NCBI GenBank assembly: GCA_963747695.1
Contig: CAVVFV010000010.1
Location: 69,618 to 133,617 of the forward strand
Origin: Candidatus Falkowbacteria bacterium
GTDB taxonomy: Bacteria; Patescibacteriota; Patescibacteriia; Patescibacteriales; WJLG01
Length of the DNA: 64,000 nt
Direction of reading: 5' to 3'
The notes beneath the pieces were generated by a model. That model searched no databases. It was not told where the DNA came from and saw nothing but the letters and a program-made list of their open reading frames with translations. Positions 9,597 through 64,000 of the stretch are shown here, piece by piece (the stretch's first letter is position 1; the number at the start of each line of letters is the position of its first letter). The translations under genes and the position numbers were made by a program.

Positions 9597-9648
9597 AACC
9601 CTATGTTATCATTTTTAGCCCAAAAATCAAGGGGAAATTAAAAAAATA

Positions 9649-11122: not shown

Positions 11123-11193
11123 CTTGCTATATTGTTATATTGCTATATTGTTAATCTTTTTTCCGTCGTGCAACAATATAACAATATGACAAT
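11123..11193. repeat. Intergenic palindrome, F1 family, copy 2
   Basis: It fills the entire murG-murC spacer. The right arm CGTCGTGCAACAATATAACAATATGACAAT is nearly identical to copy 1. Confidence 0.8.
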
Positions 11194-16998: not shown

Positions 16999-17061
16999 CT
17001 CGATTGGGTACTTAGTTGATTAGGTACTTAGGAAAAAACAGAAAACTAATCACCTAAGCGC

Positions 17062-18249: not shown

Positions 18250-18302
18250 AATTATAACGCGAATACCACGAATTATACGCCAATACCGCAAACAAATAAT
18301 TA

Positions 18303-18719: not shown

Positions 18720-18765
18720 CGAATCAATTAAAAGTTAAAAATTAAAAATGAAAAATATTTGAAAA

Positions 18766-19104: not shown

Positions 19105-19172
19105 TTTAGTTAAAAGTTAAAAATTAAAAGTGAAAAATATTTTTAATTTTTCATTTTTAACTTTTAATTGTA

Positions 19173-19856: not shown

Positions 19857-19961
19857 AAATCACATTTGGATAAAATTTATTCAGTATCTGGATAATAGCA
19901 TTGATTTAAGCCAAAAATCAAGCCCTTTTTTGCGCAATGATTGTTTAAAAAACAAGTCTTA

Positions 19962-23438: not shown

Positions 23439-24698
23439 TTAACTGATAATTTTTAAAACCTCGTCGACCGGGACTAAGCCGTTTAGTGTTTTGATTAATG
23501 CGTCTTCGGCCAAAGAATAGCCGTCTTGTTTCTTAAATTCATTCTTAATTGCGGAAAAATGTCCGGTCTTGATCAAATCTTTAACGGCCGGGGTAATTTC
23601 CCTGACTTCAAAAATCCCGATCTTGCCTGCCGAGCCGGAATTACGGCAACGCGAGCAGCCGCGACTCTTGTAAAAAACCAGCTCCAGGGGAGAGGCTATC
23701 CTTTTCGCGATAATGTTATCTTTCTTCAGCCGGGGCAATAATTTATTGAGTGATAAATTTGCTTCCAGCCGGCGCCAATTTTCTTGGCTGATCTTCTGCC
23801 TGGTCAAACAATAAGGGCAATTTTTGTCGACGAGGCGCTGAATGATGATCAATTTAGTGTTGGCTGAAAACACTGACAGCGGCAAACCTAAATCACGTAA
23901 TAATTCCAGGGTGCCGGCCAGATCGCGACTATTGATTCCGGCCAAAACAAAATGACCGGCCGCGGCTAAATGAAAGGCGGCCTCGGCCGTTTCTGCATCA
24001 TTGACCTCGCCGATCATCACCACGTCGGGATCTTGGCGCCGGAGCTCATTTACCGCCGCGCCCGAGCTGAAACCCACGCGGGGATTTATCCGACTTTGGT
24101 TTATTTCCGGCAAATCCGCCGCGACATCTTTTTCGACCGTCGCAATATTCAATTCCGGACAATTAAGAAAATCGATCAAACTATAAAGCGTGGTGATTCG
24201 TCCCGAATCATTGGTTCCGATTACGGCGATCAAACCGGCGCCAGCTGCCAGCTTGGCTTTAACTTTCGGCAAAGCCTGGGCGTTGAACCCCAACCGTCCC
24301 AAGCCGGGAAGCTCGAATTTTTCCTTGGTTAAACTGACCACGATCTTTTCTCCGCTCGCCACAGGATGAACTCCCAGGGAAAATATTATTTTGTAACCCA
24401 AATAATCTTTTTTAAAACTTCCTTTTTCCGGCGAATTATCCCGGGGACAATCCAACCCGGCCATTTCTTTGACGCCTGAGATCACCGCGGCTTCGATCTT
24501 TTTCGACAAGTAAAGGGTTTTTTTCAATCCGCCGTTGGCCATAAAATCAACCGCCAGCTCATCGCCGCGCGATTCAAAATAAATCTCGTCAGCCCCACAG
24601 CCGATCGCAAAATTAAAAATCTTGTCGATCACCCGGATCGCTCGGATATCGGCGCTGAGAGACAATTGTTCCTTTATTTCTTTTTTAAGAGATAACAT
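23439..24698 (-). CDS. GspE/PilB-family secretion ATPase homologue with degenerate catalytic motifs
   Basis: 419 aa. The family scaffold is present (GADEIYFES, DPDVVMIGEVNDAETA, CPYC...CSRC). However, Walker A reads GTNDSGRITT where GPTGSGK(S/T)T is expected, and the His box reads AGHFVLAGINS where TGHLVLSTLHT is expected. Confidence 0.8.
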   Translation of the reverse strand: MLSLKKEIKEQLSLSADIRAIRVIDKIFNFAIGCGADEIYFESRGDELAVDFMANGGLKKTLYLSKKIEAAVISGVKEMAGLDCPRDNSPEKGSFKKDYLGYKIIFSLGVHPVASGEKIVVSLTKEKFELPGLGRLGFNAQALPKVKAKLAAGAGLIAVIGTNDSGRITTLYSLIDFLNCPELNIATVEKDVAADLPEINQSRINPRVGFSSGAAVNELRRQDPDVVMIGEVNDAETAEAAFHLAAAGHFVLAGINSRDLAGTLELLRDLGLPLSVFSANTKLIIIQRLVDKNCPYCLTRQKISQENWRRLEANLSLNKLLPRLKKDNIIAKRIASPLELVFYKSRGCSRCRNSGSAGKIGIFEVREITPAVKDLIKTGHFSAIKNEFKKQDGYSLAEDALIKTLNGLVPVDEVLKIIS

Positions 24699-26820: not shown

Positions 26821-29082
26821 TTAATTTTTAATTGAAATTGTTCCCACATTCACTCCGCCCATAAAAGTTGAGTCAAAGGCGTAATAAGAATCGAGGAAAT
26901 TGCCTTGCAAATCAAAAACTCGCACATGCGGACCGCCGCCCGGACCGGCGCCGGTAATTATTTCAGCCAAGCCGTCGCCGTTGGTGTCGCCGGCAGCGAT
27001 GTTGACGCCGCCGTGGAAGCTTTGGTCATAGGCGAAGAACTGACTCTGTAATTTTCCCAGGTTGTTAAAAATACGGATTTGCGGACCGCCGCCTTTGCCC
27101 GGGGCGGTCACGATCTCCTCTTGATGGTTAACCACGCTGCCGTTGATATTAGCGATCGCGACGTTAACGCCGCCGTGAAAATTCTGGGCATAGGCCAGAA
27201 ACTGACTTTTGACTTTACCTGCCGAGGTGAAAATCTTGACTTGAGGCTGAAAGCCCGAACCGGGCGCCGTAACGATCTCAAACTTGCCGTCGCCGTCCAC
27301 GTCTCCCGCGGCGATATTCACTCCGCCCAAAAATTTGGAGTCATAGGCGATGAATTCATTTTTCAGCTTGCCTTGATTATCAAAAACTTTTATATCCGGT
27401 TTCAAGCCTGAGCCGGGCGCGGTAACAATCTCATCTTTGCCGTCGCCGTCAAAATCTCCGGTTGCCACCTTAACCCCGCCGCGGAAATCAGCCGCATAGG
27501 CATAAAATTGGCTTTTTAATTTCCCGTCCGCGCTGAAGACTTTTACGCGACCGGCAACCCCGGAACCGGGACCGACGATGATCTCGGTTTTATTATCACC
27601 ATCGACGTCTCCGGACGCCAAATAAACTCCGCCATTCGGATTGGCGTTAAATTTGGTGATCAAGGTGTCGTCGGGCTGTACTTCTCTCACTTCGGCCGAA
27701 TCGCCGGAGGCCGGCGCTAAGAGCAGCTTAACGCTTTGATCTTGTTTTTCTCGATCCGCCAAGGCGACGGCGTTTAAAGCGTTAACCCGGCCACTGCCCA
27801 ATTCGCCCTTATAATTAGGATTTAATTTGCTGATATCGTCGGCGGTGGCCAAAAGAATATCCTTGATCTGCTGCGCTTTGGCTCCGGGATCTGTCCCCTC
27901 TAATAATGCCAAAACACCCACTACCACCGGAGTCGCCATCGAAGTTCCCGACCAATAACCGCTATAATATTGATCAAGGACGGTATTATTGATCTGCTCG
28001 GTCGGCGCATAAACGGCAGTACTGAAAAAACCTTCTCCCGGAGCGGCAATGTCCACGCATTTCGAACCATAACTGGAAAAAGAGGCTTTTTGATCGACCG
28101 CATCAGTCGCGGCCACCCCGATCACCATATTATTATTGCCGTCATCGCAAGCCGGATACATCGGAGTTATATCAAGATCGTATCCTTGACCTTGTGATTC
28201 CTCGTTGCCCGCCGCCGCCACGACGATCACTCCGGCGTTATAAGCGCGGGTGATCGCTTCATATAAAGCGCGGCTATAATCCAGGCCGACAAAACTCAGA
28301 TTGATTATCGCGGCCCGGTTGTTAATAGCATAATCGATGGCTCTGACCACATCGGAAGTCCGCCCCTCGCCTTTATCATCCAAAACTTTAAGCGACATGA
28401 TCTTCGCCTGCCAGGTAATGCCGGTGATCCCCTTGCCGTTATTGCCGACGGCGGCGATGATCCCGGCGACGATCGTGCCATGCATCACTCCGGCTTCGGT
28501 GAAACCATCTTCAAATTTAGGCGAGGGATCGGGCACATTGTTCACAAAATCCCAGCCATGCGCGTCGTCGATAAAACCGTTATGATCATCGTCGATTCCG
28601 TTGCCCGGGATCTCACCGGGATTGGTCCAGATGTTGGCCGCCAGATCGGGGTGATCGATTTGCACGCCGGTATCGATCACGGCGATCACCACGTTGGGAG
28701 TCTGCCGGATCCTGTCCCAGGCTAAGGGCGCGCGAATGCGGTCCAAATACCACTGTTTGGTATAATCGGGATCGGACGGGATGACCGATGCCTGATAAAC
28801 ATAGTTCGGTTCGGCATATTCCACATCGCTCCTTTTTTCATACTGCGCGATAAGATCACTGATTTTGACGCCGGCCGGAACTGCAACAGTCGCCGGTTCA
28901 GGGGAAGTTTTATACTTCACCAAAATTTCATCGCTGACTGCCGGCGCCGTTGCCGGAACTTTATCCGTCGGGCCGGAAGATTGAACGGCTCTGGCCGTTA
29001 AAGGCGACTGGGAAAAACAAAATCCGCCGATGAGGATCAGCACGAATATTTTACCGAAAAAATTGGCGAGTTTTCCCGTCAT
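26821..29082 (-). CDS. Secreted subtilisin-like (S8) serine protease with C-terminal FG-GAP-like repeats
   Basis: 753 aa with a signal-like N-terminus. The catalytic triad contexts are VIDTGV, HGTIVAG and GTSMATP. Five C-terminal repeats of the type GDVDGDGK-EIVTAPGSG...VKVF. Confidence 0.9.
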   Translation of the reverse strand: MTGKLANFFGKIFVLILIGGFCFSQSPLTARAVQSSGPTDKVPATAPAVSDEILVKYKTSPEPATVAVPAGVKISDLIAQYEKRSDVEYAEPNYVYQASVIPSDPDYTKQWYLDRIRAPLAWDRIRQTPNVVIAVIDTGVQIDHPDLAANIWTNPGEIPGNGIDDDHNGFIDDAHGWDFVNNVPDPSPKFEDGFTEAGVMHGTIVAGIIAAVGNNGKGITGITWQAKIMSLKVLDDKGEGRTSDVVRAIDYAINNRAAIINLSFVGLDYSRALYEAITRAYNAGVIVVAAAGNEESQGQGYDLDITPMYPACDDGNNNMVIGVAATDAVDQKASFSSYGSKCVDIAAPGEGFFSTAVYAPTEQINNTVLDQYYSGYWSGTSMATPVVVGVLALLEGTDPGAKAQQIKDILLATADDISKLNPNYKGELGSGRVNALNAVALADREKQDQSVKLLLAPASGDSAEVREVQPDDTLITKFNANPNGGVYLASGDVDGDNKTEIIVGPGSGVAGRVKVFSADGKLKSQFYAYAADFRGGVKVATGDFDGDGKDEIVTAPGSGLKPDIKVFDNQGKLKNEFIAYDSKFLGGVNIAAGDVDGDGKFEIVTAPGSGFQPQVKIFTSAGKVKSQFLAYAQNFHGGVNVAIANINGSVVNHQEEIVTAPGKGGGPQIRIFNNLGKLQSQFFAYDQSFHGGVNIAAGDTNGDGLAEIITGAGPGGGPHVRVFDLQGNFLDSYYAFDSTFMGGVNVGTISIKN

Positions 29083-48084: not shown

Positions 48085-48199
48085 TTCTGGCGGCTTCCTA
48101 CTCTACCAGGGCTCAGGCCCAAGTACCATCGGAGCAAGCGGGCTTAACTTCTGAGTTCGGGATGGGATCAGGTGTGACCCCGCCGCGATGCCACCAAAA
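48085..48199 (-). rRNA. rrf: 5S ribosomal RNA
   Basis: The reverse strand reads UUUUGGUGGCAUCGCGGCGGGGUCACACCUGAUCCCAUCCCGAACUCAGAAGUUAAGC...CUGGUAGAGUAGGAAGCCGCCAGAA, and the terminal helix closes. Confidence 0.9.
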
Positions 48200-48422
48200 T
48201 AATGATGTCTTTCGTATGTCAGCGCAAGAACGCTGACAACTGAATACTATAGATAATCTTGTAAAGAAATATGTCGTTCGTATTTTTCATCTTAGAAACA
48301 AAAATGTGGGAAAATCAAATGGTTTATTAGTATCCCTCCGCTCAATATCTTACGATACTTACACGTAGGACCTATCAAGGCAGTATTCTCCTGCCAACCT
48401 GTGAAACCTAATCTTAGAGACA

Positions 48423-48453
<31 letters not shown>

Positions 48454-48622
48454 AAAACCGAAGGTAGCTACTCGGCAATGCCCCTGGCGGGACAGTCGAT
48501 ACACCAGAGCTTCGTTAATCCCGGTCCTCTCGTACTAGGGATTAGACTCTTCAAGTTTCCGCGACCATAGTAGATAGGAGACCAACCTGTCTTACGACGG
48601 TTTGAACCCAGCTCGCGTGCCT

Positions 48623-48653
<31 letters not shown>

Positions 48654-49206
48654 GCTTCTACACCCCCAGGATGAGACGGGCCGACATCGAGGTGCCGAAC
48701 CTGGTCGTCGCTGTGGACGCTTGGACCAGACTAGCCTGTTATCCCCAGAGTAGCTTTTATCCGATGAGCTTCCACCATCCTATATTGGATGGTCGGATCA
48801 CTAAGTTCTGCTTTCGCAACTGCTCGACGTGTCAGTCTTGCAGTAAAGCCGGCTTGTGCCTTTGCGCTATCTCCCGGGTTTCCATTCCGGGATAGCCGAC
48901 CTTTGTAAACGCCTCAGTTACTTTTTATGAGGCATCCGCCCCAGACAAACTACCCGCCAGACACTGTTCCCCGGAAGGATTCACTTCCTAGGGTAAGAAT
49001 TTAGAACAAACAAGGGTGGTATCTCACTGGTGCCCGAAGGCTCCCACCTATTCTGAACATGCGTATCCCAAATCCAATATCAAGTTATAGTAAAGCTTCA
49101 TGGGGTCTTTTCGTCCAGCTATGGTTAATGAGCATCTTCACTCATCCTGCAATTTCGCCGAGTGCATCGTTGAGACAGCGCCCAACTAGTTACGCCATTC
49201 AAGCAC

Positions 49207-49246
<40 letters not shown>

Positions 49247-49250
49247 GATT

Positions 49251-50005
49251 CATTGATGTTAAACCTCTCTTAGGTTCCTCTGATCGAGGCTTTATGTCTC
49301 CATAAAGATCGGACTATATCATCCGCGGTTTTCCGGACGGAAAGCGCGCGGTTCGGCGTGTAGTCTCTGAGGATTATCTACTCGCGATTCTTCAAAATCG
49401 CTTTGGTTATATTTTCTTTTTCTTCCGCGGCCGGCATTTAATTCTTCTCTTAATGCGACGATTCTTTTTAAACCGTCTTCGTTTAAATGCTCTTTGCTGA
49501 AAACTAATTCAGCGATCCGGCTGAAGATTGAAAAATTTTTCTTTTTCGTCTGGGAAAGGAAATAAAATTTCCGAAAAAACGGAATCACTTTCTCTTGGAT
49601 GGAAAGCGGATTGCTGACGACATACATATGCAATCCGTCGCGCCGTTCGACTAATCTTCCGCAGCCTAAAATCTTTTTAAACTGCGAGAGGATATAACTT
49701 TCCTTTTGGGAAACGTTAAATGTCAGAACGACTTGCCAGCCCATTTTATGGTCCGGCCTCTTTCTCAAAGAGACATTGAAACTTCCTTCACCATCGGTAA
49801 AACCGGCGAAATAGTAACCTATTTCCGGTTTTATGTTGTTTAACCAATCCTGATTCATAGATTCTTTCCTGCGGATTGTCCGCCAATGACTTTTAAAGTC
49901 ATGTTAACTTTTTGATTTTTACTGCGGATTAAATTTTCCACGAGTACAAAAAGCTTGGGCGGATGTTCCCGCATTTAGCCAAATTTTTTAACTACAATTC
50001 TGTTC
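49251..50005 (-). mobile_element. Group I intron in 23S rRNA helix 69 (E. coli U1917/A1918 site)
   Basis: The 5' exon ends in U (50006). Intron nt 11-16, GUAGUU (49990-49995), pair with exon AACUAU to form P1 with a U.G wobble. The last intron nt is G (49251). The ligated exons restore a helix 69 loop UAACUAUAA. Confidence 0.88.
49319..49858 (-). CDS. LAGLIDADG homing endonuclease (single-motif, I-CreI size class), intron-encoded
   Basis: 179 aa with an ATG start. It carries the motif YFAGFTDGEGSFNV and lies wholly inside the intron. Confidence 0.88.
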   Translation of the reverse strand: MNQDWLNNIKPEIGYYFAGFTDGEGSFNVSLRKRPDHKMGWQVVLTFNVSQKESYILSQFKKILGCGRLVERRDGLHMYVVSNPLSIQEKVIPFFRKFYFLSQTKKKNFSIFSRIAELVFSKEHLNEDGLKRIVALREELNAGRGRKRKYNQSDFEESRVDNPQRLHAEPRAFRPENRG

Positions 50006-51444
50006 ATAGTTATCGCCGGCGTTCATCCACGCTTCGGTTCAAGGCTTCATCCCGCTTACGCGGGATTAACCCCTCTCCTTAACGTTTGGACACTGGCCAG
50101 GCGTCACTCCCTATACATCCTCTTACGAGTTAGCAGAGAGCTGTGTTTTTGGTAAACAGTCCGTTGGGCTCTTTCGCTGCGGCCCATCTTGCGATGGGCA
50201 GGCCTTCTTGCGAACTTACGGCCGATTTTTTGCCGAGTTCCTTAACGATGATTCTCTCGTGCACCTTAGTCTTCTCGACTCGCCAACCTGTGTCGGTTTT
50301 AGTACGGGTACCGTTTCCTTAACCCTAGAGAGTTTTCTGGGAAGTCCCTCCCCGCAAATTGACGATCTATTGCTAGACCATCTGCAAACAACCTCTTGAA
50401 ATATCGCTCCGGATTTGCCTGGAGCTATTCTTGAAGCAATTAGCGCATATACCAATATCGCGCTTGCGGTTCGAAACTTCGTTATCCCATTGGAAAAAAA
50501 CGGTAGTGCTGGAATATTAACCAGCTTATCCATCGGCTACGCCCCCATTACAAAGGCCTCGTCTTAGGACCGACTAACCCTGGGCCGATTTACGTTGCCC
50601 AGGAAACCTTAGGCTTTCGGTGGGCGGGGTTTTAACCCGCCTTTGTGCTACTCATGCCAACATTCTCTCTTCTTGCCGCTCCACCACGTCTCGCGGCGTG
50701 GCTTCAGCGCAGGCAAGAATGCTCCTCTACCGATCCATAATAATAAATTACTATGAATCCCGTATCTTCGGTAATATACTTAGCCCCGATAAGTCTTCGG
50801 CGCGAAACAACTTGACTAGTGAGCTATTACGCTATCTTTAAAGGATGGCTGCTTCTAAGCCAACCTCCTAGTTGTCGCAGTCACGACACCACCTTTTACA
50901 CTTAGTATATATTTAGGGACCTTAGATTACGATTTGGGCTGTTTCCCTTTTGACCGATGAAGCTTAGCCCCCATGGTCTGACTCCCGAGTTATGTTGAAT
51001 GGTATTCGGAGTTTGGTTAAGAATAATATCTTGCGACTTACCCTCATTCAGTGCTCTACCCCCATTCATAAACACTCGAGGCTAGCCCTAAAGCTATTTC
51101 GAGGAGAACCAGCTATTGCCTAGTTCGATTGAAATTTCATCCCTAACCACAAATCATCCCCTAGTGTTGCACGGCTAGTGGGTTCGGTCCTCCATCCGTC
51201 TTTCGACGAACTTCAACCTGTCTGTGGTTAGATCACCAGGCTTCGGGTCTTATACGCGCGACAAACGGGCTATTAACCCTCGCTTTCACTACGCCTGCTC
51301 CGCAGAGCGGATTAGGCAAGCCGCGCGCAATAAACTCGTTGGCTCATTCTTCAATAGGCACGCCGTCACTCTGGCTTGCGCCAAAGCTCCGACTCCTTAT
51401 AAGTATATGGTTTCAGGTACTATTTCAACTCCCTCACCGGGATG

Positions 51445-51481
<37 letters not shown>

Positions 51482-52693
51482 ATCATAAAAAGTATTTAGT
51501 CTTGGATCATAGTCGACCCGGATTCACGCGGGATTTCACGAGTCCCGCGCTACTTAAGAATAATAAAGACGGTTCAATAATGCGTGTCGCGTACGGGGCT
51601 ATCACCCTCTTTGGCCTAGCTTTCCAGCTAGCTTCTGCTACACATTATCACATCCCGCTTCGTCCATCCCAAGGGACAAAAGATACTATTCTTGCAACTA
51701 CCCGTGAACATGTGGACTTGGATCCTTCCTAATCCCATACCCGAAGGCACAGGATTATTCAGTTCATGAGATTTAGACTGGTCCCCTTTCGCTCGCCACT
51801 ACTTGGGGAATCAGGTTTTCATTAAAATCCCGAAAGTAAACGGAACTTTAATGAAAACCTTTTTTATTAATTTCTTTTCCTCCGGCTACTAAGATGTTTC
51901 AGTTCACCGGGTAATCTACCTCTCTTGCGAGAGGTCATCCTGTCTTCAACAGGATAGGTTTCCCCATTCGGAAATCCTCGGATCAAAGGTTGCTTGCCAC
52001 CTCCCCGAAGCTTATCGCAGGCTGCTACGTCCTTCATCGTCTTTTTATGTCAAGGCATCCACCATACACCCTTAATGAGATTTTCCCACACTCCTATTTC
52101 TAAGAGTGTGTTGCTCATTTTTATCTTTAACTTTTTAACTTACTCTAAACTTTTTGGAAGTTTATAGTTCATTAACTTTTGCTGACGTTTTTAGACCTCT
52201 AATTAATTTTTCTTTACCTCTTTGTCCCACGAACGCGCGGGACAAAAATTATCTAAGTATTCAGTTGTCAAAGTTCTTTACGAAAACAGTATTTTAGAAA
52301 ACGATTTTTAAATCATTTTCTAAATTCTAATTTCGTTAAAAAATATTCGTGATATATTTGTTCGTAGTATTCGGATATTTCGTAGGTTCGGATTATATTT
52401 TGGCATTTAAAAAAACCGCTTATCAAGCGGTCAGCAAAACTTGCGGGCAAGTCATTTGTTAACTGCTTGAAATAAGAGAAGTTAATAAGCGATTTATCAT
52501 ATGGTTTGCCTTTGGGACTTTCGCCGAATGCCCTATTCGGCCTAAATCTCCAAAATTCGGCAAATTTATTTTAAAATTTTTTAGCCGATATGATTATATC
52601 GCCCAAAAAATTTTCAAATAAATTTGGCTCGAATTTTGTAAATTTATGCTCGAATAAGCAATCGACGACAGCCCCTGTTTTGTGATGTTATAA

Positions 52694-52819: not shown

Positions 52820-53854
52820 TCACAGGGCGCCCAGACTTTTCAACTGGGTATCGGAAATCTCCTCGCTGATCTTGCCGGCTTTGAAGAGATTGCGCAGGTC
52901 GCGCTCGGCTGAAATCATCCCCGCCTCCTGCCCCGATTGGATCACGCTCTGGATCTGGGCGATTTTATTCTCACGGATCAAATTGGCCACGGCGGAATTT
53001 CTGATCATTATTTCCCGCGTCGCGATGCGGCCGCCGCCGACCGCGGGCAAAAGCCGCTGAGAGATGACCATTTCTAAAGTCATCGAAAGCTGAGTCCTGA
53101 CCTGCCCCTGCTGATCGGAAGGGAAAACGTCGACAATGCGATCAATCGATTGCGCCGCGTTGTAGGTATGTAAAGTTGCCAAAACCAAGTGGCCGGTTTC
53201 CGCCAAGGTGATGGTGGCGGCGATGGTTTCCAGATCGCGCATCTCGCCGACCATGATCACGTTCGGATCCTGGCGCAAAGCGTGTTTCAAGCCGGATTCA
53301 AAAGTCGGGATATCGCTCCCCAATTGGCGCTGGATGATAATGCTCTTGTTCGGCTTAAATAAAAATTCGATCGGATCCTCAAGGGTAATGATCTTGCGGC
53401 TGAAATTATCATTGATGTAAGAAATTATCGCCGCCAGCGTGGTCGATTTGCCGCAGCCGGTCGGTCCGGTCATCAGCACCAAGCCGCGATTTTTATTAAT
53501 GACTTCCTTGACGATCTTGGGCACGCCGATGCTGTCCATCGACGGCGATTCTTTGTTGATGATGCGAGCCGCCAAACCGACATTTTCCTTTTCATAATGG
53601 ATATTGACGCGGAAGCGAGTGTCATCGATCGCGTAGCCGAAATCCAGGTCGCGGTTATCCTCGAACATCTGCTGCTGTCTTTCGGTCAGGAGGGAAAAGA
53701 CCATCTCCTGCAGTTCCTTCTTGGCCAAAGTCGAAAATTTATTGAGCGGCTCCAACTCACCGTCGATCCTTAGTACCGGCAAAATACCGACGTTGAGATG
53801 CAAGTCGGAAGCGCCTTTATCGATCGCAATTTGAAAGAGATCTTTGATATTCAT
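52820..53854 (-). CDS. pilT: Type IV pilus retraction ATPase PilT
   Basis: 344 aa; Walker A GPTGCGKSTT, DPNVIMVGEMRD, GHLVLATLHT. Confidence 0.92.
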   Translation of the reverse strand: MNIKDLFQIAIDKGASDLHLNVGILPVLRIDGELEPLNKFSTLAKKELQEMVFSLLTERQQQMFEDNRDLDFGYAIDDTRFRVNIHYEKENVGLAARIINKESPSMDSIGVPKIVKEVINKNRGLVLMTGPTGCGKSTTLAAIISYINDNFSRKIITLEDPIEFLFKPNKSIIIQRQLGSDIPTFESGLKHALRQDPNVIMVGEMRDLETIAATITLAETGHLVLATLHTYNAAQSIDRIVDVFPSDQQGQVRTQLSMTLEMVISQRLLPAVGGGRIATREIMIRNSAVANLIRENKIAQIQSVIQSGQEAGMISAERDLRNLFKAGKISEEISDTQLKSLGAL

Positions 53855-55798: not shown

Positions 55799-56170
55799 CT
55801 ATTTGCCTTTTATCAGGTATTCTTTGACTTTTTCGACTACCTCATTGATCGGATGCTGGGTTTTGACCAAATAATCGCTCGCCCCCAAGCTCAAGCCCTC
55901 TTTGATCTTTTCATCGTCGCCCAGATTCGACATAATGATTACCGGGATCAGCTTCATTTCCTCGTCGGCCTTTAATTCCCCGAGCACGGTCAAGCCGTCC
56001 TTTTTGGGAAGCATGATGTCCAAAAGGATCAGATCGGGTTTGCCGCTTTTCACCGCGGGCATAACCGCGGCGCCATCAGTTACGGTAAGCACCGTAAATT
56101 TTTCCTTTTCAAATTTTTCTCGAAGAACCTTTGACAAGATCTCTTCGTCTTCAGCGATTAAAAGTTTCAT
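55799..56170 (-). CDS. Single-domain response regulator (CheY-like REC)
   Basis: 123 aa; LLIAEDEE, LILLDIMLPKKDG, IIMSN, YLVK. Confidence 0.85.
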   Translation of the reverse strand: MKLLIAEDEEILSKVLREKFEKEKFTVLTVTDGAAVMPAVKSGKPDLILLDIMLPKKDGLTVLGELKADEEMKLIPVIIMSNLGDDEKIKEGLSLGASDYLVKTQHPINEVVEKVKEYLIKGK

Positions 56171-56344: not shown

Positions 56345-56749
56345 TTACGACTTCTTCCCCCCAAAATGATTCATCGCCAATTTCTGTTTGATCTTGGCCA
56401 CGACATCATCGAGCTTCCAATTCGTCTTAATCATAAAATCCTGAACGCCGTGTTTGATCGCCTCATCGATCTGCGGACCATAAGTGACATTGGTCAGCAG
56501 AATTACCGGCGTCGCTACGGATTTTTTGTCCTCGCGCAGCTTTTTCAACATCGTGACGCCGTCCATTTTTGGCATCAAAATGTCTAAGAGGATCAAATCC
56601 GGACGTTCGGACAAAGCCTTGTGCAAACCTTCCAGCCCGTCCTTGGCCTGGATGACGTCAAAACCTTCCTGGACCAGTTTTTCCGTGACGATATTAAGCA
56701 GCATCGAGTCATCTTCGGCGATTAATATTTTTTTTCTAATTTCGCTCAT
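56345..56749 (-). CDS. Single-domain response regulator (CheY-like REC)
   Basis: 134 aa; ILIAEDDS, LILLDILMPKMDG, ILLTN, FMIK. Confidence 0.85.
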   Translation of the reverse strand: MSEIRKKILIAEDDSMLLNIVTEKLVQEGFDVIQAKDGLEGLHKALSERPDLILLDILMPKMDGVTMLKKLREDKKSVATPVILLTNVTYGPQIDEAIKHGVQDFMIKTNWKLDDVVAKIKQKLAMNHFGGKKS

Positions 56750-56781: not shown

Positions 56782-59040
56782 TTATTTTGGCACTGTAAAA
56801 TAAAAAGTCGTGGCGGCCCGAGTCGATTTGAACCAGATCTTTCCGCCATTAGCCTCAACCGCCGCCTTGGCAATGAATAATCCCAAACCGCTGCCGACAT
56901 ATTGCAGGTTCCGCGCGTTCTTACCGCGATAAAATTTGGAAAAAACTTTGGCCTGATCACTCTTGGCGATCATCGGCCCATAATTTCGGATGCCGACTAA
57001 GTAATTATTGTTCCCCGCTCCGATCGTGACGTCGATCTTGCCGTTTTCCGGCGCAAAATTGCAGGCATTATTCAAGATGTTGCTGAAGGCTTCGGAAAAA
57101 AGCAGCGGATCGATATTGACGGATTTCAATCGGATTTTAGCCTTCAAATTGATTTTTTGATTTTTCTTTTCGAGCGTCGGCCGCAACTGTCTAATGGCTG
57201 CTTCAATCAACGGCACTAGCTTAACTGTTTTTTTGTTAACTGATAATTTCCCCGCCGCGATCCGCGTGACATTCAACAGGCCGTTCACTAAGCCGATCAG
57301 CCGCTCATTGGAAATAATCAGATCGCGCGTGTACTCTTTTTGTTTATCGCTCAAACCCCCGGTTTGCGTCATCATTTCCAAAATCCACTTCGTAACCGAA
57401 AGAGGCGTGCGTAATTGATGCGAGGCCAGCGAAAGAAAATCATTTTTTGCCTGATCCAATTCCTTTTCATAGGTGATGTCGCGAAAAACATTGATGGCGC
57501 CGATAGTCTTACCGGCGGAAATAACCGGTGAAATCGCGCGGGAAACCGGGAATCTCTTCCCTTTTTTCCCCGAATAATAATAGGGCGTGATGCTGGCGAA
57601 CGTCAGTCCGGTTTTCAAAACATTTTCAAAATCACTTTTTTCCGGAGGGATCTCATTGCCCCTTTCGTCTTCCTTGCGTAAAATCGTATACCATTTTTTT
57701 CCTTTTGCCTCTTTTTCCGTGCAAGCGAGCATCCTTAAAGCCGTCCGGTTGATCAGGATAATGTCGTCGTTCTTGTCCACGGCGATTACTCCGTCAGCGA
57801 TACTGGCCAGCAGCGCTTCGTCTTTGGCGGCGATTTCTTTCAATGAATTCTCGACTTTTTTAAGCTCAGTAAGATCAACCAATATCCCCCTGATCCCATT
57901 GGCAGAATTTTTTCGCACCGCAAAACGAGAATAGACCATGGCGGGAAAAACACTGCCATCCTTCCTCAAGGCCAAAAAATCATTGGTACCGTTGTCGGCC
58001 GCTTTTACGGGGGTTAAAATAACTTTTGCCGCCCGCTGGCGGTCCACTCGGGCGATCAATTGCAAAATATTCAATCCTTTAGCCAAAGCCTTTTCCTGAT
58101 AACCAAAGTTGGTCAAGCCGTTGCGATTCAGGAAAGTCAATTTCCCCTGATGATCCATTTCAAAAACAGTTTGCGGCAAAAGATCGACCAAATTTTTAAA
58201 ACGCTCTCGGCTTTGGCGCAATTCTTGTTCGCTCCGTTTATACTCAGTAATATCTCTGACTGATTCAATCGCGCCGACCATCTTGCCATTCTCATCATAT
58301 AAAGGCGAGGCAATCGACGACAGATAAGCGCCCTGGCCGCCATTGAGGCGGGGAATGAACATTTCCGCGGCCAGACGATCATTTTCCTTATGAATATAGG
58401 AATATTTTTTCTCAATTCTTCTGTCATTTTTTATGACGAGATCCATCAAGACCGGGCGCCTTTTGCCGTAAAAAGGCAAGGCATACTGATAATCATCCCT
58501 GCCCAAAATATTTTTCCTTGGCACACCGGTTAATATCTCCATCTTTTCGTTCCAAGCGATAACCCGATGTTCCAAATTTACGGCCATGGTCGCGTCGGGC
58601 AAAAAATTAACCAAAGCCGCCAAGCGTTGCTGGGAAGCTTGCAGCTCTTCTTCAGCTTTTTTTCGGGAAGTCACGTCCCGAAAAAAACCGATCATCATTT
58701 CTTTTCCCTCGAGTTTTACGGGAATCGAAGAATTAATGTCCATGAAAAAAATCCGGCCGTTCTTTCCCTTGATGGGCACGTTTCGGGAAATGGAAATTTC
58801 TCTCCGCGCCAAGCGGCCAAAATCCTTTAAAACCCGGCCCGCCTCGGACTTAGGATGAATATCCTCGACCCGCATTTTTTTTAACTGTTTTAATGAGCAC
58901 CCCAACATCCGACAGATCGATCGATTGCCATAGTAAAATTTCTTGGTGGCAATGTCCGCCAATAAGACCCCGTCGGGGACATTATCGAAAAAATCGCGGA
59001 AGTCTTGGTCCGACTTATTCTTTTTATTCATCATTGGCAT
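56782..59040 (-). CDS. Multi-PAS sensor histidine kinase
   Basis: Several PAS-like segments, the H-box LSLASHQLRTPLS and a C-terminal HATPase region. The ATG at 59040 is preceded by GGAGGGGGA; the ORF-track start at 59058 is GTG. Confidence 0.85.
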   Translation of the reverse strand: MPMMNKKNKSDQDFRDFFDNVPDGVLLADIATKKFYYGNRSICRMLGCSLKQLKKMRVEDIHPKSEAGRVLKDFGRLARREISISRNVPIKGKNGRIFFMDINSSIPVKLEGKEMMIGFFRDVTSRKKAEEELQASQQRLAALVNFLPDATMAVNLEHRVIAWNEKMEILTGVPRKNILGRDDYQYALPFYGKRRPVLMDLVIKNDRRIEKKYSYIHKENDRLAAEMFIPRLNGGQGAYLSSIASPLYDENGKMVGAIESVRDITEYKRSEQELRQSRERFKNLVDLLPQTVFEMDHQGKLTFLNRNGLTNFGYQEKALAKGLNILQLIARVDRQRAAKVILTPVKAADNGTNDFLALRKDGSVFPAMVYSRFAVRKNSANGIRGILVDLTELKKVENSLKEIAAKDEALLASIADGVIAVDKNDDIILINRTALRMLACTEKEAKGKKWYTILRKEDERGNEIPPEKSDFENVLKTGLTFASITPYYYSGKKGKRFPVSRAISPVISAGKTIGAINVFRDITYEKELDQAKNDFLSLASHQLRTPLSVTKWILEMMTQTGGLSDKQKEYTRDLIISNERLIGLVNGLLNVTRIAAGKLSVNKKTVKLVPLIEAAIRQLRPTLEKKNQKINLKAKIRLKSVNIDPLLFSEAFSNILNNACNFAPENGKIDVTIGAGNNNYLVGIRNYGPMIAKSDQAKVFSKFYRGKNARNLQYVGSGLGLFIAKAAVEANGGKIWFKSTRAATTFYFTVPK

Positions 59041-59163
59041 GATCCCCCTCCCCCTCACAAATTTAAAATTAAGGAGTAGCCGGATAAAATTTTAACCGAA
59101 CCCTCCCTAAAATTAATATCAAATGAATTAATCCTTAAATGCGACAACGTCAATTGCCGGGCG

Positions 59164-60957
59164 TCATTCATTAATCTCCTTGATATTATCCGTCACGTAT
59201 TTTTTGGCTTTTTTCAACTTATCTTTCGTCTGCTTCAATAAAAATTCCGTCTCCGCCGCTTCGTTCTCATCGATCTTGCCGTCGTCATAATGATGCAGCA
59301 TCGTATCCAGATTTTTATCCGTACTGTCAAGGATATTGTTCACGTCGCGCTGCGCAATGATCACTTTACGGGCAGCCTGTTTGCGCCAGAGTCGGCGGGA
59401 ATACCAACCGCATAAGAACATCAAGATAACAATTATCGAGATGCCGATCCAGAGCCAGAGTTGAGTAATCTCCCACGACCAGATGACAAACACCGGCTTT
59501 TCTCTGACTGAAAAAATTTCCGATTTGACGGGCAAACTCAAAGCGCCGCGATAATCTTTAGCTGTTAATTCCACATAATATTGCCCGATCCGGAAAGGCC
59601 CGTCGAACTTAGCCACCCAAGTTCCGTCTTGATCCGCATTGGCGGCGGTTTGGCTGATCACCACGTTATTTATATCTTTTAACGATAAAGCCAACGAGGC
59701 ATTCGGCACCGAATTGCCTTCCAGGATCAAGTCGCTGATCTGGGCGTAAACATTCTTGGAAATGGAGGTGATGACCGGGGACTGGAGCGGGTTGATGTTA
59801 AATTGAAAGCTATTCTCCCGGATATTTCCGGCCGCATCGACCGCTTTTACCGTAACATTATGTTGCCCGGGCGTCTCGGGGGCTAAGGTTAAAGTTCCGC
59901 TCGCGACCTTGACCTCGTCACTGTTATCAACCCTGACCAAATAATGATCAAGTCCCGATAATCCATCGCTGGTGCCGAATTCCAAAGTCCGAATCGGGCT
60001 GTCGGTGGCGGTTGATTCCAGCGTGCTGATGGTAAAAGGCAGCGGCGGTACGGTGTCAATGGCAATGCGATAAGTGGTGATCGGACCCCAGCCGACATTA
60101 TTTTGAAACATGATGTGCCAATACCAAATTCCATCGCTCAAAGACGGAAAAGTTTTGGCGTCAAAAAGCCCCTCGGACTTGGTTGGCAGCGCGAATTTTA
60201 AATTTTGATTGACCGCCGAACTGATGCCGGAAACGTCATCAGGCAAATCCCACTGCGTCAAGAAATCAGTTACCTCATTATACCAACTTTTCTGATCCGG
60301 ATATAACGGCACGCTGACCACTGGCGCGATCGGCAATTTTTTGGTCACGGTCGGTTTTCTGGTAATCGGCGCCGGCGCCGGCATCAACGGCTTAGTGGTA
60401 GTCGCGGTAACGGGCAGCTTAGGAGCATTCAACGAAGGAACTACGTTATATTGCGCCGATGAGATTGAAGAAAGAATATTGCTGCCGCTGCCGTCCGAGG
60501 CGGTGACCGCCGCGTCGCTGATCGTTACCGGAGCATTACCGGAGGCGTTCGCCGTAAAAGTTATCTTCAAAACGCCGACGGAAGACCCGACCAAACCGCT
60601 GGTGCTGCCGCCGATAAAACTTACCGTGCCGCCGCTGTTGGAAAAAGTCGGTTGCTCGAGCCAAAAATTAAAGATTGAAGACGGCGAGGAAAAATCCAAG
60701 GACTTCACTTGCAGCGCATTGGCGGGAAATTGCACCGTCGCCTGCGCCGCATTGAATGCCTGACCTTGGCTGTCGATTCTTACTTCGACGTCAAAAGTTT
60801 GGCCAATCTGATATTGACCGACTTCCGGCGATAAAAATAAGGTGGCAGCCTCAACGGCCGGAACCTGAGCCGCAAAAATCATTGCCACGGCCAAAATCAT
60901 AAAAACCGCAGTCAATCCAAAAGAAAATCTTACTTTATTCATAAATATCATCATCAT
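59164..60957 (-). CDS. Membrane-anchored cohesin-domain surface protein
   Basis: 597 aa with a signal-like N-terminus. The cohesin-like module is LFLSPEVGQYQIGQTFDVEVRIDS...GVLKITFTANASGNAPVTIS. It also has an Ig-like middle region and a C-terminal TM helix plus charged tail. The start is ambiguous among ATGs at 60942-60957. Confidence 0.75.
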   Translation of the reverse strand: MMMIFMNKVRFSFGLTAVFMILAVAMIFAAQVPAVEAATLFLSPEVGQYQIGQTFDVEVRIDSQGQAFNAAQATVQFPANALQVKSLDFSSPSSIFNFWLEQPTFSNSGGTVSFIGGSTSGLVGSSVGVLKITFTANASGNAPVTISDAAVTASDGSGSNILSSISSAQYNVVPSLNAPKLPVTATTTKPLMPAPAPITRKPTVTKKLPIAPVVSVPLYPDQKSWYNEVTDFLTQWDLPDDVSGISSAVNQNLKFALPTKSEGLFDAKTFPSLSDGIWYWHIMFQNNVGWGPITTYRIAIDTVPPLPFTISTLESTATDSPIRTLEFGTSDGLSGLDHYLVRVDNSDEVKVASGTLTLAPETPGQHNVTVKAVDAAGNIRENSFQFNINPLQSPVITSISKNVYAQISDLILEGNSVPNASLALSLKDINNVVISQTAANADQDGTWVAKFDGPFRIGQYYVELTAKDYRGALSLPVKSEIFSVREKPVFVIWSWEITQLWLWIGISIIVILMFLCGWYSRRLWRKQAARKVIIAQRDVNNILDSTDKNLDTMLHHYDDGKIDENEAAETEFLLKQTKDKLKKAKKYVTDNIKEINE

Positions 60958-61031
60958 ATTTTAAAAATAATTGGTGATTTTTCTCCGCCGCCGTGCCGCC
61001 AAACTCCGCATAAATCAGCTAAGGTTAAATG

Positions 61032-64000
61032 TTATTTAATTTTAGCAGCTTGCAAGAAAATACTCAAATCAGAAATGTCGATTTTTCCGTCGCCGTTCAA
61101 GTCCGACCGCGGATCTTTTTTTTGCCAAAGAATCAGAAAAATACTCCAATCCTGCACGTCGATCTTCCCGTCATTATTGAAATCGGCGCTCGGCAAAGTG
61201 GACGAGGAAACGATAAAATTCCTGGTCAAGGAATATTCGCCGGCGACACCGGTAATATTATCGATCTGACGGACTTTAACCGTGTGGGTGCCGTAAGGCA
61301 GCGCCGCCGTATTGACGAGGATCTGATAGGCGCCGGCGGAATCGGAAGTGACGCTGTAAGTCTGGCCATTGTCCAAAAGTACCGTAACCTGGTTATTCGG
61401 CGCCGCATAACCGATCACCTTGATAAAATCTCCCCTGGTCAAAACCGAGCGTACGAGATCAATCGTCGGCGGAATGATTACCTTGTCGATTTCCACCGTC
61501 GTAAGATTGAAACTGACATTGAAGATCCGGGCTTGCGTCTCTCGTCCGTCTTTATCCTTGGCCAATAAGCTGAAAACATCGTCTCCGGCGGAAAAACCGG
61601 TAACCGTAATACTGAAACTGCCGTCGCTGGCAGCGCTGCCGGTTTCTTTCAAGACGTTCATCCCTTGGCTCACTTGCGAAACCAGAATCTGAGCGGCGGC
61701 AAAAGCTTCTCCTTTGATAGTCAGTGATAACGGCTGCGGAACCGAACGGCTGCTGACCGGCGCCGGTTGGCCGCCTGACGATCCGCCCACCGCCGCAAAT
61801 ATGACGTTTTGTATGGAACTGACATCAAGGCCGGTGGCCTCGGTGTCGGAGAGCGAAAGATTTACCGTTTCCGCGACCGCATCGGTGATAACTTTCACGC
61901 CAACGCCATTGACGATACTGACCAGTCCGCCGCCGCTGGCTGCGCCGCTGGTGACCAGCGTCACTCCTTGCTCGTAAGAATTGTCGACATTGCCCAAATT
62001 ATCCTGCGCCTCGATCTCCACGGCGATATGGTCGCCGGCTCTGCCGTTCGCCGGGTTGATGATGACGAATTTCGTGGCGGTCACCGGAATAAAAGTTACG
62101 GTAACCGAATCCGAGCCATCAACGATACCGGCGACTCCGTCGGGAGCGACTGAATTGTCCGAAGCAGTGACTGTCCAGATCCCGGCCGTATTGTCATAAT
62201 ACCAGAAATTTGCCGTTGAACTTGCATTGGCAATCGACACCGAAGTAATTTGACCGCCCAGCGTGGCCGCGTCAAAAAACTTGGTAGTCGTCCCGGTGGA
62301 ATTGGAATAAAGATACACGACATTGGTACCGGCGGTTACCGGATTAGAAAATTGATCGCGCCGCGAAACTTCGAAGCCGAGCCTGGTGCCCGCCGTCATA
62401 TTGCCCGGATTATTCAAAACAAATTCCGTGACCGCGCCGGACGCGACCGCCAAAACATCCTGGGCATCAAGGATGCCGGTCGGGCCGTCCGGAGCGGTTG
62501 AGTTGTCGGAAACCCTAATCTGCCAATTTCCCGATTTTTCATCATAGTACCAAAAATCCGCCGCGGAATTTCCCGGTGAAATATTAATCAAGCTAATCGC
62601 GCTGCCGCCAATCGCCGCATCATAAAACCTTTTGTTGATGCCGTTGGAATCGGAGTAAAGATAAACCGCGGTATTGCCGGTCGTGATCAGATTGCCGAAT
62701 TGATCTTCGCGCTTAACCGTATAATCAGCCCGAGTTCCGGCAACGATTCCCGCCGGATTACTGAGAATGAATTTATAAACCGGCCCGGCGGCAAAAACCA
62801 AATCCTGAGTCGAGCTGATATCCAGCCCGGTCGTTTGCGTGTCAGACAAAGAAAGATTAACCGTTTCCGCAACCGTATCCGTAATCACCGCCGTCCCCAC
62901 TCCATTGACGATATCCACCAACCCTCCGCCGGTGGCCGCGCCGCTGGCCAAAAGTGTTACGCCATTTTGATAAGAACCGTCGACATTATTATTATTGTCC
63001 ACTGCCTTGATGGTAACGTTGATATGGTCGCCGACCGTGCCATCGATCGGATTAACAATAATAAATTTAGTGGCGACGATCGGCACGGCTGAAACGTTAA
63101 CCGTGTCCGTGGCGTCAATGATGCCGGCTGCTCCGTCGGGCGCCGCGGAATTGTCTGAACCGGTTACCGTCCAAGCACCGACATTCTGATCAAAATACCA
63201 AAAATTTGTTTCAGAATTTCCATCAGTGATGCTAACCGAACTGACCGGGCTGCTGGTGCCGTCAGTCGAGTAGAAAATCGGAGCGGTCGGAGTAGAATTG
63301 GAAAAAAGATATACATTATCCTGGCCGGCAGTTACCAAATTAGCAAATTGATCCTCGCGCGTTACCGTATAACCCAATAATGTTCCGGCCGTCATATCGC
63401 CCGGATTATCCAAGAGATATTTATAAGTGGCCGCGGCCGATACGGTTACTGAAACCGAAGCATCGATAATTCCGGTAATACCGTCCGGTGCCGAGGAATT
63501 ATCAGAAGCCGTGATGGTCCAATTACCGGCCTTGTCATCATAATACCAAAACGCCGCGGTGGAAGATCCGTTGCCAAGCGCTGCCGAGGTGATTGCAGTG
63601 CCGGCGGCGGCCGCATCATAAAATTTATAATTTGCTCCGCTGGAATTGGAGTATAAATAAACGGTCTCGCTGGTAGAGGTGACGCTATTGCCATATTGAT
63701 CAAGACGGCTGACGAGATAGCCTTGTCTTGTCCCGGCGGTCATCCCACCGGGATTATTCAAAGTATATTGAGAAGTCGGTCCGGGTATTACTTCGATCGC
63801 CGCGGCAGCATCCTGGATTCCGGCGTTCCCGTCCGGAGCGATTGAATTATCGGAAGCGGTGATAATCCAGTTACCCGCCTTTTCATCATAATACCAAAAA
63901 CCGGCGGTCGTATTCCCGCTGCTGATGATGACCGAAGTAATTAGATTTCCATTGACTCCGGCATCATAAAAAGCCTGATGAACGCCATTGGAAGTTGAAT
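61032..64000 (-). CDS. Giant repeat surface protein ending in a type I dockerin (partial; N-terminus beyond right edge)
   Basis: The ORF-track start at 63761 is TTG inside a repeat. Hand translation of 63762-63998 stays open and continues the repeat (…FWYYDEKAGNWIITASDNSIAPDG…). The C-terminus is DFNNDGKIDVQDWSIFL...DLNGDGKIDISDLSIFL. Confidence 0.85.
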   Translation of the reverse strand, partial: STSNGVHQAFYDAGVNGNLITSVIISSGNTTAGFWYYDEKAGNWIITASDNSIAPDGNAGIQDAAAAIEVIPGPTSQYTLNNPGGMTAGTRQGYLVSRLDQYGNSVTSTSETVYLYSNSSGANYKFYDAAAAGTAITSAALGNGSSTAAFWYYDDKAGNWTITASDNSSAPDGITGIIDASVSVTVSAAATYKYLLDNPGDMTAGTLLGYTVTREDQFANLVTAGQDNVYLFSNSTPTAPIFYSTDGTSSPVSSVSITDGNSETNFWYFDQNVGAWTVTGSDNSAAPDGAAGIIDATDTVNVSAVPIVATKFIIVNPIDGTVGDHINVTIKAVDNNNNVDGSYQNGVTLLASGAATGGGLVDIVNGVGTAVITDTVAETVNLSLSDTQTTGLDISSTQDLVFAAGPVYKFILSNPAGIVAGTRADYTVKREDQFGNLITTGNTAVYLYSDSNGINKRFYDAAIGGSAISLINISPGNSAADFWYYDEKSGNWQIRVSDNSTAPDGPTGILDAQDVLAVASGAVTEFVLNNPGNMTAGTRLGFEVSRRDQFSNPVTAGTNVVYLYSNSTGTTTKFFDAATLGGQITSVSIANASSTANFWYYDNTAGIWTVTASDNSVAPDGVAGIVDGSDSVTVTFIPVTATKFVIINPANGRAGDHIAVEIEAQDNLGNVDNSYEQGVTLVTSGAASGGGLVSIVNGVGVKVITDAVAETVNLSLSDTEATGLDVSSIQNVIFAAVGGSSGGQPAPVSSRSVPQPLSLTIKGEAFAAAQILVSQVSQGMNVLKETGSAASDGSFSITVTGFSAGDDVFSLLAKDKDGRETQARIFNVSFNLTTVEIDKVIIPPTIDLVRSVLTRGDFIKVIGYAAPNNQVTVLLDNGQTYSVTSDSAGAYQILVNTAALPYGTHTVKVRQIDNITGVAGEYSLTRNFIVSSSTLPSADFNNDGKIDVQDWSIFLILWQKKDPRSDLNGDGKIDISDLSIFLQAAKIK

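Follow-up and report, generated by a model that had tools for sequence, protein, structure and literature searches.

Cohesin and dockerin modules are known outside cellulosomes. The toxin and glycosidase complexes of Clostridium perfringens (2ozn, 2jh2, 2w1n, 2vo8), the Archaeoglobus fulgidus cohesin (2xdh) and the amylosome of Ruminococcus bromii (9qfa) are uses beyond cellulose. In Clostridium thermocellum, the surface-anchored cohesins of SdbA, OlpB, Orf2p and OlpA/OlpC (3ul4, 4dh2) tether dockerin proteins. The host attachment of Patescibacteria (candidate phyla radiation, CPR) is to our knowledge largely unexplained beyond type IV pili, and the majority of the conserved proteins on their surface lack an annotation. 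Here, a pair of adjacent genes was analysed in a 64,000-nucleotide (nt) stretch of the Candidatus Falkowbacteria contig CAVVFV010000010.1, called the window in the following. The first gene codes for a large protein with immunoglobulin (Ig)-like repeats that ends in a dockerin. The second codes for a protein of 597 amino acids (aa) with an N-terminal cohesin and a C-terminal transmembrane helix. The pair is probably a cohesin–dockerin anchor of a dedicated, non-cellulosomal kind, by which Patescibacteria display the variable Ig-repeat protein on their surface.

Both genes were located on the minus strand, and the coordinates of the cohesin gene and the 74-nt gap reported in an earlier note on this DNA were reproduced. 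The cohesin open reading frame (ORF) occupies 59164..60957 (-). The dockerin-ended ORF upstream of it has its stop codon at 61032..61034 (-), and its reading frame is open to the window end at 64000. At least 988 aa of it fall within the window, and on the identical public contig L001, where it is likewise cut, it reaches at least 1387 aa. The nearest homologues of the 597-aa protein originated from 'Patescibacteria group', Falkowbacteria, Magasanikbacteria, Uhrbacteria and Wolfebacteria, identifying the organism as a Patescibacterium. The features of the pair are, in the direction of the genes:

61731..64000, minus strand: body of a large secreted repeat protein, partial, continuing past the window (translation)
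61200..61730, minus strand: two Ig-like modules before the dockerin, the second X-module-like (Pfam, AlphaFold2, conservation)
61035..61184, minus strand: C-terminal dockerin, DFNNDGKIDVQD-WSIFLILW-QKKDPRS-DLNGDGKIDISD-LSIFLQAAKIK (Pfam, NCBIfam, profile, AlphaFold2)
60958..61031, minus strand: spacer of 74 nt from the dockerin gene to the cohesin gene (sequence)
60847..60957, minus strand: signal-peptide-like N-terminus, residues 1-37, ...AVEA/ATLF (hydrophobic segment 8-42)
60412..60852, minus strand: cohesin module, residues 36-182 (PF00963, AlphaFold2, Foldseek)
59476..60411, minus strand: Pro/Thr-rich linker (residues ~183-215), then three beta-rich Ig-like stalk domains (~216-494) (conservation, weak Big_13 match)
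59395..59475, minus strand: single transmembrane helix, residues 495-521 (Kyte-Doolittle peak 2.36)
59167..59394, minus strand: charged cytoplasmic tail of 75 aa, IAQRDV...KYV.DNIKEI (15 K+R, 15 D+E)

The cohesin stalk protein and the dockerin-ended protein

The N-terminal module of the 597-aa protein was predicted to be a cohesin, and this identification is solid, based on the Pfam score, the structure model and the fold search. Scanned as an isolated module, residues 36-182 matched PF00963 (Cohesin) with 32.4 bits and E=1.3e-7 at a gathering cut-off of 24.1, which upheld the cohesin proposed in the earlier note. The same model matched 38 of 46 homologous modules scanned singly. Precomputed PF00963 matches were present on approximately 40% of the full-length homologues, and two sources named members 'cohesin domain-containing protein'. 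The AlphaFold2 model of the module, calculated with 46 homologues, was all-beta with a predicted local distance difference test (pLDDT) score of 94. Together with the Foldseek result, it showed the nine-stranded flattened beta-sandwich (jelly-roll) of solved cohesins, and the helix insertion of the type II kind was absent. In Foldseek searches against the PDB, the top 50 matches were all cohesins, with 6kge_A as the best match (E=5.5e-10, template-modelling (TM) score 0.73) and TM scores reaching 0.75. The nearest folds were type I cohesins and the non-cellulosomal A. fulgidus cohesin; lower scores went to cohesins of type II and type III, ScaE among them. The A. fulgidus cohesin ranked 4th and C. 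perfringens cohesins held ranks 11, 12 and 29; OlpA/OlpC were among the close fold matches. A profile search of the PDB with the cohesin family gave only marginal cohesin matches from Ruminococcus flavefaciens (E=0.02).

The remainder of the protein resembles a membrane-bound stalk. The signal sequence is likely cut after AVEA, and A-A-T-L as the start of the mature module is kept in the family. For the stalk, Pfam Big_13 matched residues 353-388 with 34.7 bits, which is weak support. An OmpL47-type barrel of NCBIfam remained under its cut-off, and Pfam gave no match on residues 183-317. The motifs VPLYPD..KWYN and WYLHV.F.NN.GWG of the stalk were strongly kept across homologues. Residues 495-521 form the sole hydrophobic segment besides the N-terminus, and both segments were present in 47 of 53 homologues. 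The signal-like N-terminus, the single C-terminal transmembrane helix and the charged tail described in the earlier note were thus corroborated by hydropathy and conservation; its Ig-like middle part found weaker support, from Big_13. Neither LPXTG near the C-terminus nor a surface layer homology (SLH) domain was found in the sequence or by Pfam. In the tail, positions R537, D538, Y587, I592 and I595 were almost invariant among the 53 homologues and the family ends in the motif KYI.ENI.EI. A Pfam scan of the 75 aa gave no meaningful match to a known domain. Since the tail is conserved family-wide and has no known domain, an intracellular partner is implied.

The cohesin family was uniform, with members of 560-630 aa that were 38-69% identical over their full length. 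Searched with a profile, 1.84 billion cluster representatives (50% identity) yielded 2959 proteins at E<=1e-30. Among the top 150 of these, most matched over the full length in one stretch and the rest were giants repeating the Big_13-like domain 10-44 times. The Big_13-like stalk domain (profile positions ~282-370) occurred 32-44 times in tandem in P0176 (4269 aa), P0202 (5271 aa) and P0273 (6906 aa) from public metagenomes, and several further giants of the same search held 10-21 copies.

The upstream protein ends with ...DFNNDGKIDVQDWSIFLILWQKKDPRSDLNGDGKIDISDLSIFLQAAKIK. It contains two 12-residue Ca-type loops with a helix after each, DFNNDGKIDVQD with WSIFLILW and DLNGDGKIDISD with LSIFLQAA, and the loop aspartates were invariant in 29 homologues. 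With Pfam Dockerin_1 (PF00404), the full-length protein reached 24.5 bits and the 55 aa scanned alone 31.3 bits, both above the cut-off of 22.9, in line with the duplicated calcium-loop-plus-helix dockerin of the earlier note. NCBIfam dockerin_GC scored 35.7 (cut-off 29), and precomputed PF00404 matches were present on approximately 30 of 55 homologues of the C-terminal region. The AlphaFold2 model of the last 147 aa (pLDDT 93) comprised an Ig-like beta-sandwich, a loop-helix, a short helical turn of 3 residues and a second loop-helix. The dockerin helices were at positions 107-118 and 134-143 of the model, with a strand and coil before loop 1. Foldseek matched the complete model to Ig-like domains of Bap (7dm0), SiiE (2yn3) and intimin. 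The Ig part dominated this search, which was uninformative on the dockerin. A dockerin-only profile with 29 members was used against the PDB sequences because the Ig part swamped the fold search. It matched 2y3n_B at 3.3e-7, 4fl4_A, C. perfringens 2jnk/2ozn and 2yik, with E-values up to 1.4e-6; in the endoglucanase 2yik, the match fell on the dockerin region at the C-terminus. The best EF-hand protein followed behind these solved dockerins at 1.5e-5. The profile also matched the Amy12 dockerin of R. bromii.

Dockerins usually comprise ~60-70 residues with an inter-repeat linker helix. The dockerin of the window is short: its conserved positions span 50 residues, with a 7-residue linker; in relatives of other lineages, the linker was 3-5 residues longer. 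The label 'type I' of the earlier note is approximate only, given the shortness of the module and the conserved Ig-like module directly before it, as in X-dockerins. This Ig-like module was conserved together with the dockerin in 34 homologues. The 177-aa segment of the two Ig-like modules matched Pfam Big_6 with 37.3 bits and Big_13 with 27.5 bits. Two tandem dockerin copies, not one, ended the partner protein of the closest relative (2373 aa; L002/L008, gene 2782..9903 of L002) and P0122.

The body of the upstream protein consists of ~115-aa repeats (NNPG.MTAGT...FWYYD...ASDNS.APDG) alternating with two ~97-aa modules (ATKF.I.NP...VAETVNLSLSDT), and Pfam gave weak matches only on the body repeats. 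The ~97-aa module (VKF...LSLSDT) was also the N-terminal domain of ~550-aa homologues (P0123-P0157). Partner proteins in the family ranged from ~430 to >3300 aa, many with ~550 aa, and the C-terminal end alone was conserved. The earlier note spoke of a giant repeat protein, a description that does not hold for every partner. Four complete partner proteins had signal-peptide-like N-termini.

Several results of the module searches speak against a cohesin–dockerin pair. In scans of the full-length 597-aa protein, Pfam gave Big_13 alone and NCBIfam no cohesin either; the Pfam cohesin match thus depends on how the query is cut, being present for the isolated module and absent in the full-length scan. 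A single-sequence PDB search of the cohesin module gave nothing useful, with CBM77 at E ~1. On the isolated 55 aa of the dockerin, EF-hand_5 and EF-hand_1 scored equal to Dockerin_1, and EF-hand proteins came first in the single-sequence PDB search. The shortness of the dockerin belongs to the same side. Taken at face value, these results would mean that both names mislead: a Ca2+-binding EF-hand pair would stabilise the last Ig domain, and the cohesin-like sandwich would be a glycan- or protein-binding module unrelated to dockerins. This is very improbable. Solved dockerins outranked EF-hands with the family profile, dockerin_GC passed its cut-off, PF00404 was present on more than half of the homologues and the fold of the cohesin model was specific. 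The reading also leaves the constant side-by-side encoding unexplained. A canonical EF-hand pair was rejected on the same profile ranking and because no helix enters the first loop in the AlphaFold2 model, which is preceded by strand and coil; this is the arrangement of a dockerin, not of an EF-hand.

Gene order, matched subtypes and putative interface

The order of the two genes was conserved. Five homologues (38-65% identical) found by exact-protein look-up showed a large gene (1637 to >3360 aa), a gap of 14-97 nt and the cohesin gene on the same strand. All five large proteins ended in the same dockerin, and response-regulator and/or histidine-kinase genes followed the cohesin gene. In 6/6 loci of the exact-protein look-up, the cohesin gene was immediately preceded by a same-strand ORF with a dockerin end. 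Scanning one genome per GTDB species yielded 80 loci, and all 79 with upstream DNA had a same-strand dockerin-ended ORF ahead; in two of them, a response-regulator gene was inserted between the dockerin gene and the cohesin gene. Altogether, the pair was present in 86 of 88 loci, which are all 86 loci with upstream DNA, the other two being without upstream sequence. The gap between the genes in relatives was typically a few to ~100 nt. The named loci of the GTDB scan were all Patescibacteria, affiliated with Wolfe-, Staskawicz-, Yonath-, Nomura-, Colwell-, Jorgensen-, Azam-, Harrison-, Adler-, Lloyd-, Magasanik- and Uhrbacteria, and further loci were labelled 'Paceibacterota' and 'Minisyncoccia'.

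The reverse search started from the whole region of Ig-module and dockerin (XDoc) on metagenome contigs and counted loci whose contig continued for at least 500 nt downstream. In 24 of these 31 loci, a gene of the cohesin family followed within 1.5 kb. L090 was missed by the threshold only, raising the count to at least 25/31, and the cohesin genes of L105 were further off, at 2-3 kb. Generic dockerin-only matches had a cohesin gene downstream in 5 of 30 cases. Exactly one cohesin-type and one dockerin-type ORF were encoded in the 64-kb window, with no dockerin-bearing protein besides the partner. The two genes may be co-transcribed: a terminator-like site was sought on the minus (coding) strand of the spacer 60958..61031 and none was found, and a single weak promoter-like match was located near the spacer at 61067..61039.

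Thirteen loci carried a second dockerin subtype that ends with ...DFSIM.(Y/F)(Y/W)WTG, followed by a divergent, shorter cohesin protein. The divergent cohesins scored 37-90 bits on the profile of the family-1 cohesins, compared to ~180-205 bits for family-1 members. The dockerin proteins of this second subfamily comprised ~240-630 aa and the cohesin proteins ~300-390 aa. Its loci on metagenome contigs included L094, L099, L100, L103, L107, L109, L110, L112, L115, L116, L132 and L140. Both subtypes were present on the patescibacterial contig L086, which carried two cassettes ~6 kb apart, at 8289..11768 and 15916..19870. One cassette paired a dockerin ending with ...DFSIFIRSIKRK with a family-1 cohesin gene encoding a transmembrane helix, the other a dockerin ending with ...DFSIMLFWWTG with two shorter divergent cohesin genes. 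Since these are paralogous cassettes with matched subtypes on one contig, species phylogeny cannot account for the arrangement. Each plug beside its own socket is the pattern that dedicated cognate pairs would be expected to leave. The adjacent pair of the earlier note is a linked unit according to the 86/86 gene order, the reverse search and the matched subtypes of L086.

The 8-3-6-5 sheet is the dockerin-binding face of the cohesin in solved type I complexes. The strands of the model were assigned to this sheet by inference, from the strand order aligned with C. thermocellum cohesins. The assigned sheet was more conserved than the opposite sheet (column entropy 1.30 vs. 1.90 bits, Mann-Whitney p=0.005). 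Most of the invariant residues of the cohesin were located on it or in the loop after strand 8, comprising FNAAQAT, FNFWL, F.GG and AVTASDGSGTN.

Direct contact of the two modules at this locus is what we infer from the sequences, and two points weigh against it. Adjacency demonstrates functional linkage, not binding. Inter-protein mutual information with average product correction (APC) over 80 pairs reached a maximum of 0.353 compared to 0.294 for shuffled pairs, which is unconvincing; the top covarying pairs were scattered over both sheets and the termini, and the excess over the shuffles is what shared phylogeny would give. The modules might not be mutual partners, the cohesin capturing dockerins encoded elsewhere or a host ligand, with adjacency reflecting co-regulation or a shared route of secretion or assembly. 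Many non-cellulosomal cohesins and dockerins, such as the A. fulgidus cohesin 2xdh, have no known partner, and the dockerin count covers 64 kb of the genome, so that others may exist. Still, this alternative appears unlikely, as the linkage was near-universal in both directions, the subtypes were matched where two cassettes share one contig and the dockerin end of the partner was conserved while its body varied.

Two-component genes and other genes of the window

The cohesin gene is followed by two-component signalling genes, which were annotated with Pfam on the identical contig L001:

55799..59058, minus strand: downstream two-component genes
56782..59058, minus strand: PAS histidine kinase
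56345..56749 and 55799..56170, minus strand: two single-domain response regulators

In at least 52 of 88 loci, the same strand carried a CheY-like response regulator downstream, which was directly adjacent in approximately 44. This and the conserved cytoplasmic tail suggest that the cassette may be coupled to signalling. The cohesin stalk could conceivably go further and sense host contact, with the tail and the response regulator, plus the PAS histidine kinase, reporting engagement or tension of the adhesin and with the paralogous cassettes of matched subtypes providing several independent sockets per cell. We consider this a long shot. It would amount to outside-in sensing that controls, e.g., type IV pili or growth, and to a load-bearing signalling contact organelle widespread in Patescibacteria.

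The window also encodes two ATPases of the type II/IV secretion family (T2SSE). These, a PilT-like protein of 344 aa (52820..53854, minus strand) and a PilB-like protein of 419 aa (23439..24698, minus strand), were consistent with type IV pili. In the close relative L002, the PilT-like gene is found at the same place downstream of the cassette. A probable surface protein of 1155 aa (19962..23429, minus strand) contained domains of the DUF11, FG-GAP and InlB B-repeat-like kinds. A subtilase of 753 aa (26821..29082, minus strand), which also has FG-GAP repeats, is probably surface-exposed; both were without a dockerin. The 23S ribosomal RNA (rRNA) gene at 48307..52086 (minus strand) comprised 3780 nt compared to a model of 2925 nt. 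It contained a LAGLIDADG homing endonuclease ORF (49319..49858, minus strand, 65 bits) as an intervening sequence. A long 23S rRNA gene with a LAGLIDADG endonuclease ORF is typical of CPR. The 5S gene followed the 23S gene at 48085..48198, no 16S gene was adjacent, and the gene upstream encoded the PilT-like ATPase.

A candidate surface anchor compared with described systems

In the proposed mechanism, both proteins would be exported via Sec; SecA is encoded in the window. The 597-aa protein would be retained in the membrane by its C-terminal transmembrane helix and would carry the cohesin at the distal end of the linker and the three Ig-like domains. The upstream Ig-repeat protein would dock on this cohesin via its C-terminal Ig-module and dockerin in a Ca2+-dependent manner and be displayed outside the wall as a fibre, adhesin or envelope component. 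The body of this protein differs by lineage in repeat type and length, with the dockerin end and the cohesin anchor conserved.

An adhesin or fibre is the most plausible cargo, judged by the likeness to the ScaE–CttA system and to the retention of giant adhesins and by the domain matches to Bap, SiiE and intimin. A serious alternative is that the same anchoring serves another purpose and that the displayed protein is a structural component of the envelope, S-layer-like or part of a pilus or fibre sheath, and not a host adhesin. The window neighbourhood was full of cell-envelope genes, including a MurC-like ligase, FtsW/RodA, MraY, glycosyltransferases and PMT_2. The cassette was as widespread and conserved as a housekeeping envelope element would be, with full-length homologues in many candidate phyla and 2959 clusters, some of which were unrelated giants sharing only the Ig-like repeat. 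These observations fit a structural role. However, the length and repeat type of the displayed protein varied among close lineages, which fits adhesins under diversifying selection better than the proteins of an S-layer lattice, and no S-layer-type domain was detected in the Pfam scans. A structural role is the less probable option, to be kept in mind next to the display of an adhesin or fibre. That such an adhesin would bind a host cell is speculation from the adhesin-like architecture of the Ig repeats, a point that weighs against the reading. The episymbiont with a host-attachment apparatus suggested in the earlier note was accordingly borne out as far as the affiliation to Patescibacteria is concerned, and the apparatus itself remains speculation.

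The surface anchor is a candidate display system whose gene order is shared by many candidate phyla, among them Wolfe-, Yonath-, Nomura-, Staskawicz-, Colwell-, Magasanik-, Falkow- and Uhrbacteria, and its family amounts to hundreds to thousands of sequence clusters. To the biology of cohesins and dockerins it would add a form that is anchored in the membrane, has a single socket and no enzyme, and is genetically linked to two-component signalling. The hypothesis is simple to test experimentally with two small recombinant modules and a switch between Ca2+ and ethylenediaminetetraacetic acid (EDTA). The two subtypes are putative naturally orthogonal plug-and-socket pairs, which could serve as parts for protein assembly.

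Full-text literature searches yielded no published description of the cassette; their coverage was incomplete and the result is absence of evidence only. Individual members were already annotated automatically as cohesin-domain proteins. What seems to be undescribed is the cassette itself, a transmembrane-anchored stalk with a single cohesin, a dockerin-ended variable partner always ahead, a response regulator often after and at least two subtypes. The nearest mention was an essential 927-aa 'dockerin-domain' protein, SEML1_0315, of the cultured Saccharibacterium Southlakia epibionticum (PMC10633639). In this region (SEML1_0315-0318), a tRNA, a response regulator and a PAS histidine kinase are encoded upstream of it and an alpha/beta hydrolase is encoded downstream, and no cohesin gene was reported beside it (PMC10633639). 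Compared by annotation only, the same-strand neighbourhood of response regulator and PAS histidine kinase resembles the locus of the window.

A cellulosome or amylosome was rejected as an explanation. Each protein held one cohesin, one cohesin ORF was present in 64 kb and no carbohydrate-binding module (CBM) was matched. The sole dockerin of the window was located on an Ig-repeat protein without a detected catalytic domain, and scans of 20 further large ORFs of the window gave no glycoside hydrolase. The pair therefore stands outside any cellulosome context, with no glycoside hydrolase nearby, as the earlier note had stated. A scaffoldin of the ScaE or SdbA type, anchored by sortase or SLH domains, was also rejected, as the protein ends in a transmembrane helix and a 75-aa tail and has neither LPXTG nor SLH.

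The architecture resembles that of ScaE of R. flavefaciens with the X-dockerins of CttA and ScaB (type III; 2zf9, 4iu2/4iu3), in which a cell-bound single cohesin anchors a large non-enzymatic adhesion protein. There, too, an Ig-like X domain and a dockerin form the C-terminus of the adhesion protein, and ScaE and the CttA complex were among the fold matches of the cohesin model. The genes cttA and scaE are neighbours in R. flavefaciens, like the two genes described here. In contrast to the transmembrane helix and conserved cytoplasmic tail described here, ScaE is linked to the cell wall through sortase (LPXTG), and it holds a whole cellulosome, whereas no enzyme or scaffoldin context was present in the window. 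Its TM scores of 0.66-0.68 were below the 0.72-0.75 of the type I and archaeal cohesins, which are nearer to this cohesin. The scaffoldins of C. thermocellum differ in that they bind a Firmicute wall polymer by SLH domains and serve cellulose degradation, whereas no SLH, CBM or glycoside hydrolase was detected here. In the non-cellulosomal systems, cohesins and dockerins join enzymes to enzymes or have partners that are not known. None of them pairs an adhesin-like protein with a transmembrane-anchored single-cohesin stalk in a conserved cassette of two genes, and none is followed by two-component genes. With SiiE, Bap and LapA, the latter retained by LapE and controlled by LapG/LapD, the cassette shares a long variable Ig-repeat protein and a dedicated, linked retention device, and in the case of LapD also signalling genes linked to the retention genes. 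These are Gram-negative, type 1-secreted repeats-in-toxin (RTX) adhesins held in an outer-membrane pore, whereas the protein described here would presumably be exported via Sec and retained by a cohesin–dockerin contact on a stalk of the cytoplasmic membrane.

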